A stretch of DNA of 64,000 bases from Verrucomicrobiota bacterium (GTDB taxonomy: Bacteria > Chlamydiota > Chlamydiia > Chlamydiales > 2-12-FULL-49-11), in contig JAFEGE010000005.1 of NCBI GenBank assembly GCA_018240105.1, positions 21,189 through 85,188 of the forward strand, in the 5' to 3' direction. The translations under genes and the position numbers were made by a program. The notes under the pieces were generated by a model, which was given only the letters and a program-made list of their open reading frames with translations, was not told the origin of the DNA and did not search any database. Positions 63,183 to 63,452 of this stretch are shown piece by piece (positions within the stretch are counted from its first letter, which is position 1; each line of letters opens with the position of its first letter).

Positions 63183-63211
63183 TTGCAAGGTAATAGTAAA
63201 TCTCCTACATT
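63183..63211 (+). promoter_or_regulatory. Sigma-70-like promoter of the histone-fold gene
   Basis: TTGCAA (63183-63188), a 17-nt spacer and TACATT (63206-63211). AAGGAG lies 7 nt before the ATG at 63258. Confidence 0.45.
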
Positions 63212-63257
63212 AGGGCGTTACCATTTTTAATATACCGATTTTTAAGGAGATATTTGT

Positions 63258-63452
63258 ATGAGCGAAACTTTAGTTGTTGTAAGCAAAGCAAAAGCTTACA
63301 TCCGTGAAAAATCTGAAATGAACACAGCTGCATCAGCAATCGAAGCATTGACAAAGATCGTGCAAGATGCTTGCGACCGAGCCATAGAAAACGCCAAAAA
63401 AGATGGTCGTAAGACAGTTATGGATCGTGACTTTACAGCGAGCTCTGTTTAA
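63258..63452 (+). CDS. Bacterial histone-fold protein (single histone fold, 64 aa)
   Basis: LVVVSKAKAYIREKSEMNTAASAIEALTKIVQDACDRAIENAKKDGRKTVMDRDF aligns helix for helix with archaeal HMfB [58 protein letters not shown]. Confidence 0.8.
   Translation: MSETLVVVSKAKAYIREKSEMNTAASAIEALTKIVQDACDRAIENAKKDGRKTVMDRDFTASSV

Follow-up and report, generated by a model that had tools for sequence, protein, structure and literature searches.

Chlamydial chromatin is usually described by the lysine-rich, H1-like proteins Hc1/Hc2 (HctA/HctB) and by HU only. A small gene of another kind, for a single histone fold of 64 residues, was found in the stretch of DNA analyzed here, which comprises 64,000 nucleotides of contig JAFEGE010000005.1 (assembly GCA_018240105.1, positions 21,189 to 85,188, forward strand) and is referred to below as the window. 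The best match of its product among proteins of known structure is HBb (Bd0055, UniProt Q6MRM1) from Bdellovibrio bacteriovorus, an abundant protein that forms strict homodimers and resisted deletion (Hocher 2023, PMC10627809; Hu 2024, PMC11317129). Its L1-L2 loops and helix 1 contact the minor groove of DNA independently of sequence, and because HBb cannot tetramerise, DNA is not wrapped (PMC10627809; PMC11317129). In crystals of HBb, straight DNA was coated end-on (Hocher 2023, PMC10627809), whereas solution assays and molecular dynamics simulations showed bending of DNA like that by HU and IHF (Hu 2024, PMC11317129). Relatives are already on record from chlamydiae. Chlamydiota is one of the phyla listed as having histones of the 'bacterial dimer' kind (Schwab 2024, PMC11390915; Hu 2024, PMC11317129), and the chlamydial histones listed by Hocher 2023 (PMC10627809) come from Waddlia (ADI38622.1), Simkania (CCB88880.1), a Waddliaceae metagenome-assembled genome (MAG) and two Chlamydiae MAGs. 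The Waddlia histone is highly expressed (Hocher 2023, Fig. 6a, PMC10627809), and the Waddlia and Simkania proteins (D6YWW1 and F8L7X8) have been aligned by Hu 2025 (PMC12701072). The analysis presented below indicates that the gene in the window very probably encodes an HBb/Bd0055-family histone of an uncultured member of Chlamydiota, which would act as a homodimer that binds and bends, or coats, DNA as a nucleoid-associated protein alongside HU.

The histone gene starts with ATG, and its product, as read from the window, is MSETLVVVSKAKAYIREKSEMNTAASAIEALTKIVQDACDRAIENAKKDGRKTVMDRDFTASSV (64 amino acids). When all PDB chains were searched with phmmer, the structures of HBb (8fvx, 8cmp, 9ezz, and 9f0e) were matched over residues 1-60 with an E-value of 1.7e-15 and ~52% identity. 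The next relative was the FtF histone HLp from Leptospira (9qt0; E 7e-5, 38% identity), and the archaeal histones gave E-values of 0.004-0.7. A first-pass annotation of this DNA, made from the sequence alone, had pointed to HBb and had aligned the protein along its whole length with the archaeal histone HMfB. The former resemblance is thereby confirmed and is strong, and the latter alignment, including the KDGRKTVMDRDF segment, was reproduced with MAFFT, though at a distance (23% identity). Judged by these comparisons, HBb is the informative relationship, and the similarity to HMfB is real but distant. The hidden Markov model search that had been suggested as a check did return CBFD_NFYB_HMF (PF00808), yet the match fell below the curated Pfam cut-off (17.6 bits vs 21.4), as did that to DUF1931 (PF09123; E 0.13, 12.9 bits vs 21.8) and, in NCBIfam, that to archaea_histone (NF043032; 24.1 bits vs 50). 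No Pfam match to Hc1 was obtained for the window histone. Among the published chlamydial members, the protein from Simkania negevensis is 64% identical and that from Waddlia chondrophila 58% identical to the window histone, in both cases over 59 residues and with no gaps. These two belong to the same phylum; the window lineage differs from them in being an uncultured MAG with a lysyl-tRNA synthetase (LysRS) that is 61-65% identical to those of named chlamydiae, and in the neighborhood of its histone gene.

With 64 aligned relatives as input, AlphaFold2 produced a single-chain model that had a mean pLDDT (predicted local distance difference test) of 87.3 and showed a histone fold with α1 at residues 3-19, L1, α2 at 25-48, L2, and one helical turn at 56-58. 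Structure prediction thus yielded the fold that the first-pass annotation expected, and the shortened helix 3 it described appears in the model as this single turn. The five best Foldseek matches in the PDB were all HBb structures (template modelling (TM) score 0.71-0.79, 48-52% identity), followed by HLp (TM 0.72) and HTkC and later by nucleosomal histones at a TM score of ~0.5. Window histone and HBb fall in the same length class (60-64 amino acids) and have the same predicted fold with a short α2 and a one-turn α3. The residues L5, V7, S9, K10, K12, C39, A42, A46, R51, K52, T53, R57, and D58 are invariant in the 64-sequence alignment. They include most of the loop-2 motif RKTxxxD/RxTxxxxD, present as R51-K52-T53-V54-M55-D56-R57-D58, in which R51 and D58 occupy, by sequence alignment only, the positions of the RD clamp, as they do in HBb. 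The main DNA contacts of HBb are N22, R57, S9, T53, T8, S24, K10, K12, K52, and K16 (Hu 2024, PMC11317129). Seven of these ten are identical in the window histone (S9, K10, K12, N22, K52, T53, and R57), among them the basic α1 residues K10 and K12, and one is conservatively replaced, K16 by an arginine that is found at this position in 16/64 of the family (lysine in 48/64). The residues needed for tetramerisation are missing from both proteins: HBb was made to wrap DNA by the changes S45F, A48H, and I61L (Hocher 2023, PMC10627809), and the corresponding sites of the window histone are N45, K48, and A61. As far as its defining features can be tested from sequence, the protein has every one of those of the α3-truncated 'bacterial dimer' histones, a category that Schwab 2024 defined by sequence clustering; these features include an α3 cut down to ~3-4 residues and an α2 that falls 4-5 residues short of that in nucleosomal histones. 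It lacks those that define nucleosomal histones, FtF histones, DUF1931 proteins, and Hc1-type proteins. The core of the first-pass annotation, a single histone-fold protein of the HBb kind in a chlamydia, is accordingly backed by sequence, predicted fold, and motifs alike.

We infer from the behavior of HBb that the window histone dimerises, is abundant, and both binds and bends DNA. Two copies would pair head-to-tail via the long helix 2 to give a histone-fold homodimer, and this dimer would bind the minor groove and backbone of DNA, with no sequence preference, via the paired L1-L2 loops (N22, R51-K52-T53, and R57), with further contacts from the N-terminal segment of helix 1 (S9, K10, K12, and R16). 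Since the contact residues are kept and the tetramer residues are missing, the HBb mode of action is the best-supported one, and nucleosome-like wrapping is not expected because the dimer-dimer residues of helix 3 and helix 2 are missing. The predicted outcome would be local bending of DNA (Hu 2024) and/or coating at high density (Hocher 2023), in the role of an abundant nucleoid-associated protein alongside HU. Hc1/Hc2 and HU have the same presumed role as small nucleoid-associated proteins and are not homologous to the window histone. The HU gene mentioned in the first-pass annotation is indeed in the window (Table 1); a lysine-rich, Hc1-like open reading frame (ORF) was not found there, nor was a second histone-fold gene in searches that included Simkania CCB88888.1 and HLp.

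Several points weigh against this picture. With 11 K+R against 10 D+E and seven lysines among its 64 residues (11% Lys), the window histone is near-neutral (pI 7.9), whereas the pI is 9.25 for HBb and 9.6 for both the Waddlia protein and HMfB, and this might lower its non-specific affinity for DNA. Two of the HBb contacts are changed, T8 to V and S24 to A, of which V8 is the family consensus (61/64 sequences). The DNA-binding mode of HBb is itself disputed between coating (PMC10627809) and bending (PMC11317129). The promoter described below is weak by consensus, which leaves high expression in this organism putative. The experimental data on chlamydial homologues consist of the expression level of the Waddlia protein (Hocher 2023, Fig. 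6a), and the papers found include no biochemical study of a chlamydial member.

The near-neutral charge would also suit a histone fold recruited to a task other than organising the chromatin as a whole, for instance as a scaffold for protein-protein interactions or as a specific regulator. Such roles have precedents, having been proposed for DUF1931 proteins and seen for the eukaryotic TAF and NF-Y folds, and the sub-threshold matches of the window histone to DUF1931 and CBFD_NFYB_HMF point the same way. Schwab 2024 (PMC11390915) caution that prokaryotic histone-fold proteins need not all organise genomes. DUF1931 proteins, however, are pseudodimers of two fused histone folds that lack the DNA-contact residues of HBb, whereas the window histone is a single fold in which those that are invariant in the family are present and the identity to HBb extends over the full length. 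Moreover, no conserved gene partner hints at a complex, since synteny is limited to the nearest relatives. We consider such a role improbable.

A further alternative is a tetramer-forming histone of the FtF type that wraps DNA, like HLp from Leptospira perolatii (9qt0) or HTkC from Thermococcus kodakarensis (9f2c). These belong to the same α3-truncated superfamily, with similar truncations of α2 and α3 and with an Arg and an Asp that align at the RD clamp, and HLp is the second-best relative of the window histone in the PDB. HLp and HTkC form tetramers that wrap ~60 bp. The match of the window histone to HBb is better by ten orders of magnitude than that to HLp, and it is without the dimer-dimer residues of the FtF proteins: like other members of the 'bacterial dimer' category, it does not have their conserved R and N (located at the α2 end and in L2) but N45 and D49 at these positions. 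This reading is thus very improbable. Even less credible is a nucleosomal histone of the archaeal type, assembling into tetramers or hypernucleosomes, as the HMfB alignment might suggest. The window histone has the fold topology, the RKT...D motif in L2, and the RD-clamp Arg and Asp in common with HMfA/HMfB, besides the weak matches to CBFD_NFYB_HMF and archaea_histone given above, both of which stayed below the curated cut-offs. Its α2 is four residues shorter than that of HMfB (a 4-column gap inside α2 in the MAFFT alignment), and helix 3 has one turn instead of three, five residues (the tail TASSV) following F59 where 11 follow the equivalent Ile in HMfB. K48 takes the place of the tetramer histidine H49, so that the H49/four-helix-bundle interface is absent, as is the sprocket arginine; HBb, which also lacks these residues, cannot wrap DNA (Hocher 2023, PMC10627809).

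The histone gene is under strong purifying selection, and its similarity to HBb is far beyond chance. In comparison with the nearest orthologue (locus L007, 80% amino acid identity), the proportions of synonymous (pS) and nonsynonymous (pN) differences were 0.62 and 0.14, which corresponds to a dN/dS of ~0.12 and excludes a spurious ORF. In comparison with more distant orthologues from chlamydiae and Bdellovibrionota, pN was 0.17-0.26 and pS 0.70-0.89, the latter near or at saturation. A recently acquired histone gene borne by a phage or other mobile element, or else a spurious ORF, is scarcely conceivable: a 'phage histone' subgroup has been described (Schwab 2024, PMC11390915), the family is patchy across phyla, and its near-equal similarity between chlamydiae and Bdellovibrionota is compatible with past horizontal transfer, but the gene has no PHROG match (best E 0.12), the G+C content of the window (0.415 vs 0.416), housekeeping neighbors, synteny with a tRNA methyltransferase gene in L007, L009, and L010, and, apart from its low dN/dS, an identical protein encoded, in the same neighborhood, by contigs of at least six metagenome samples.

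Relatives of the window histone were found in at least 549 stretches of GTDB species-representative genomes, many of which are labelled Chlamydiae, Simkaniaceae, or Parachlamydiales. Among the matches listed, identity to the window histone was 59-71% for chlamydial proteins and 60-68% for those from Bdellovibrionota/Oligoflexia. This spread and near-equal similarity may reflect extreme constraint, horizontal transfer, or mis-binning, and a protein of 60 amino acids gives little tree signal. Single matches, also among those listed, came from MAGs labelled Lysobacteraceae, Nitrospirae, Gemmatimonadota, Latescibacterota, and Krumholzibacteriia. In the Chlamydiales MAG DATIHQ01, an identical 63-residue histone is encoded at two loci (L053, 1108-1287, and L057, 5001-5180), where the last ~55 nucleotides upstream are nearly identical and the sequence beyond is different, as would be expected if the gene had been duplicated recently or if one copy had arisen in assembly or binning. 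The first-pass annotation regarded Chlamydiae as not known for core-histone-fold proteins, a view that is out of date, for such proteins have been published in this phylum since 2023 (Hocher 2023, Schwab 2024, Hu 2024, Hu 2025); its description of the histone's function in this lineage as uncharacterised still holds. The part of the hit table of Hocher 2023 (PMC10627809) available to us does not list an HBb-type histone for the genus Chlamydia or Protochlamydia. Supplementary file 3 of the same study contains a second histone-fold protein from Simkania negevensis, CCB88888.1, of 77 amino acids and with a Lys/Ala-rich N-terminal tail, MAKKKKQAKAKTKTKAKAK. CCB88888.1 was 36% identical to the window histone (tblastn) and looks like a tailed bacterial histone. 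The gene, then, was under-annotated and has been correctly identified as a member of a known family, the presence of which in Chlamydiota is not new.

The features of the histone locus and other genes of the window are collected in Table 1.

Table 1. Coordinates of the histone gene, its candidate expression signals, and other genes in the window.
Feature	Position	Strand	Basis and remarks
CDS (coding sequence), HBb-type ('bacterial dimer', α3-truncated) histone, 64 aa	63258..63452 incl. stop	+	ORF, homology, fold, family alignment, selection
Candidate -35, TTGCAA	63183..63188	+	4/6 to TTGACA; in CCCTTG block conserved vs L007
Candidate -10, TACATT	63206..63211	+	4/6 to TATAAT; 17 nt past -35
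Shine-Dalgarno, AAGGAG	63244..63249	+	8 nt before ATG; TTTTTAAGGAGATATT-GTATGAG stretch conserved in L007
3' hairpin 1, 8 bp, GCUCUUUU/AAGAGAGC	63462..63481	+	RNA fold; possible transcript end or stabiliser
3' hairpin 2, 11 bp, G+C-rich	63492..63517	+	RNA fold; function inferred
251-aa ORF	62422-63177	+	Hydrophobic-rich, presumably membrane protein
SDF-family transporter	63449 to beyond 64000	-	412 aa in complete copies
LysRS	44949-46556	-	Best named matches chlamydial
HU	37089-37364	-	
Ribonucleotide reductase, large subunit, 1091 aa	24129-27404	+	~420 residues, incl. ATP-cone sequence, before all-alpha domain
Ribonucleotide reductase, small subunit	27417-28472	+	Directly after large subunit
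Four-gene cluster	7970-11349	+	
Type III polyketide synthase (in cluster)	8533-9609	+	Chalcone/stilbene synthase family
Flavin oxidoreductase (in cluster)	10252-11349	+	
Amine oxidase/phytoene-desaturase-like gene	6140-7633		Adjoins four-gene cluster

The start given for this locus in the first-pass annotation, 63183, is the first base of the TTGCAA hexamer, and its coordinates and sequence features agree with what is observed. The AAGGAG ribosome-binding site (RBS) that it described is present and well placed. With naive choice of start codons, such a 6-mer Shine-Dalgarno sequence was found in only 2/45 large ORFs of the window and a 5-mer in 9/45, and most chlamydial orthologues have a Shine-Dalgarno sequence of the GGAG/GAGG type. 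The 'good -35/-10 pair' of the same annotation was located correctly, but its strength by consensus is no better than chance. TTGCAA-17-TACATT agrees with the consensus at 8/12 positions, matches of this quality occur at 2.84 per kb per strand in the window with three in this 80-nucleotide spacer alone, and a canonical promoter scan that required at least 9/12 returned no site. In the alignment with L007, which carries TAAAGT in register of the candidate -10, the spacer is otherwise diverged, and the conserved islands are exactly CCCTTG at the -35, AAATCTCCTAnAnTAG at the spacer end plus the -10, and the RBS block. We regard TTGCAA-17-TACATT as a probable sigma-66/70-type promoter of the histone gene because of this positional conservation in L007, from which all of its support derives; transcription from it would begin near 63218-63220. 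The promoter flanks of the six contigs with an identical protein are nearly identical and hence uninformative on conservation. As a sigma-28 promoter, CCGAT at 63235-39, which resembles the -10 core, was rejected: a TAAAGTTT-like -35 is missing at 11-12 nucleotides, and the transcription start would fall in the RBS. A different upstream block, approximately TTAAAAATTTTTCCCATAAAT-N5-AATATGnnTATACA and located ~40-75 nucleotides before the start, is common to the chlamydial orthologues of another clade at L008 (~4925-4965), L012, L018, and L025; it could be a clade-specific histone promoter or operator and is absent from the window.

Downstream of the histone gene, the region 63445-63545 folds as RNA with -32.8 kcal/mol (z = -4.47), and 0/200 shuffled sequences were as stable. 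The scan for canonical terminators gave none at the 3' end of the gene, and hairpin 1 is not followed by a U-tract. Hairpins at the 3' end are also seen at orthologous loci, as a canonical terminator in L010 and as stable stems in L015 and L008. The stop codons of the histone gene and of the convergent SDF-family transporter gene overlap in TTAA (63449-63452), which places the histone 3' hairpins within the last ~25 codons of the transporter. On the upstream side lie the gene for the presumed 251-residue membrane protein and a divergent gene for a tRNA/rRNA U5-methyltransferase. The 251-residue ORF is without a Pfam family and its product is 40% identical in L007; the candidate -35 starts 6 nucleotides past its stop codon. 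The histone gene is apparently monocistronic and stands alone. When the window neighbors were compared by tblastn with 80 related loci, synteny (tRNA methyltransferase, NUDIX, and MFS genes) was observed only in L007, L009, and L010, the three nearest relatives, which gives no indication of a conserved operon or functional partner.

The named best matches of the LysRS encoded in the window are all chlamydial (Chlamydiia, Chlamydiales, Simkania, and Neptunochlamydia; 61-65% identity), from which it follows that the DNA comes from an uncultured lineage that branches deeply within Chlamydiota. This bears out the chlamydial host assumed in the first-pass annotation, and the NCBI label 'Verrucomicrobia' is probably a coarse assignment at the level of the Planctomycetes-Verrucomicrobia-Chlamydiae group. 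The window is ordinary chromosome, with genes for both subunits of ribonucleotide reductase, PriA, LysRS, CysRS, HtrA, HU, acetyl-CoA synthetase, MsrA, and transporters. In its architecture, the large subunit of the ribonucleotide reductase is reminiscent of Chlamydia NrdA with its multiple ATP cones. The four-gene cluster with the type III polyketide synthase and the flavin oxidoreductase, together with the adjoining amine oxidase/phytoene-desaturase-like gene, is an unusual content of secondary metabolism for a chlamydia.

For annotation, the identification is of practical value. The window histone is recorded at NCBI as MBS0584761.1, 'hypothetical protein JSR76_00470 [Verrucomicrobia bacterium]', and at JGI as 'histone H3/H4'; nearly all of its chlamydial relatives are likewise called 'hypothetical protein' at NCBI. 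Since it does not reach the histone cut-offs of Pfam and NCBIfam, the family is systematically missed. The window adds one member and no new concept, because the family in Chlamydiota has already been published. HBb-type histones are widespread in environmental chlamydial lineages (Waddlia, Simkania, and many MAGs) and would there make up a third chromatin component, with a putative role in the developmental cycle. More tentatively, it is possible, if rather unlikely, that chlamydiae in the replicative stage rely on the HBb-type histone as a major and perhaps essential component of their chromatin, and that its interplay with Hc1/Hc2 and HU could be part of the developmental switch between the relaxed nucleoid of reticulate bodies and the condensed one of elementary bodies; this reading rests on the published high expression of the Waddlia protein and on HBb being essential in Bdellovibrio. 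If true, the near-equal similarity of chlamydial and Bdellovibrionota members would reflect extreme constraint or transfer between phyla, and a histone-based layer of chromatin would be common to two groups that have biphasic life cycles, the predatory Bdellovibrionota and the intracellular Chlamydiota.

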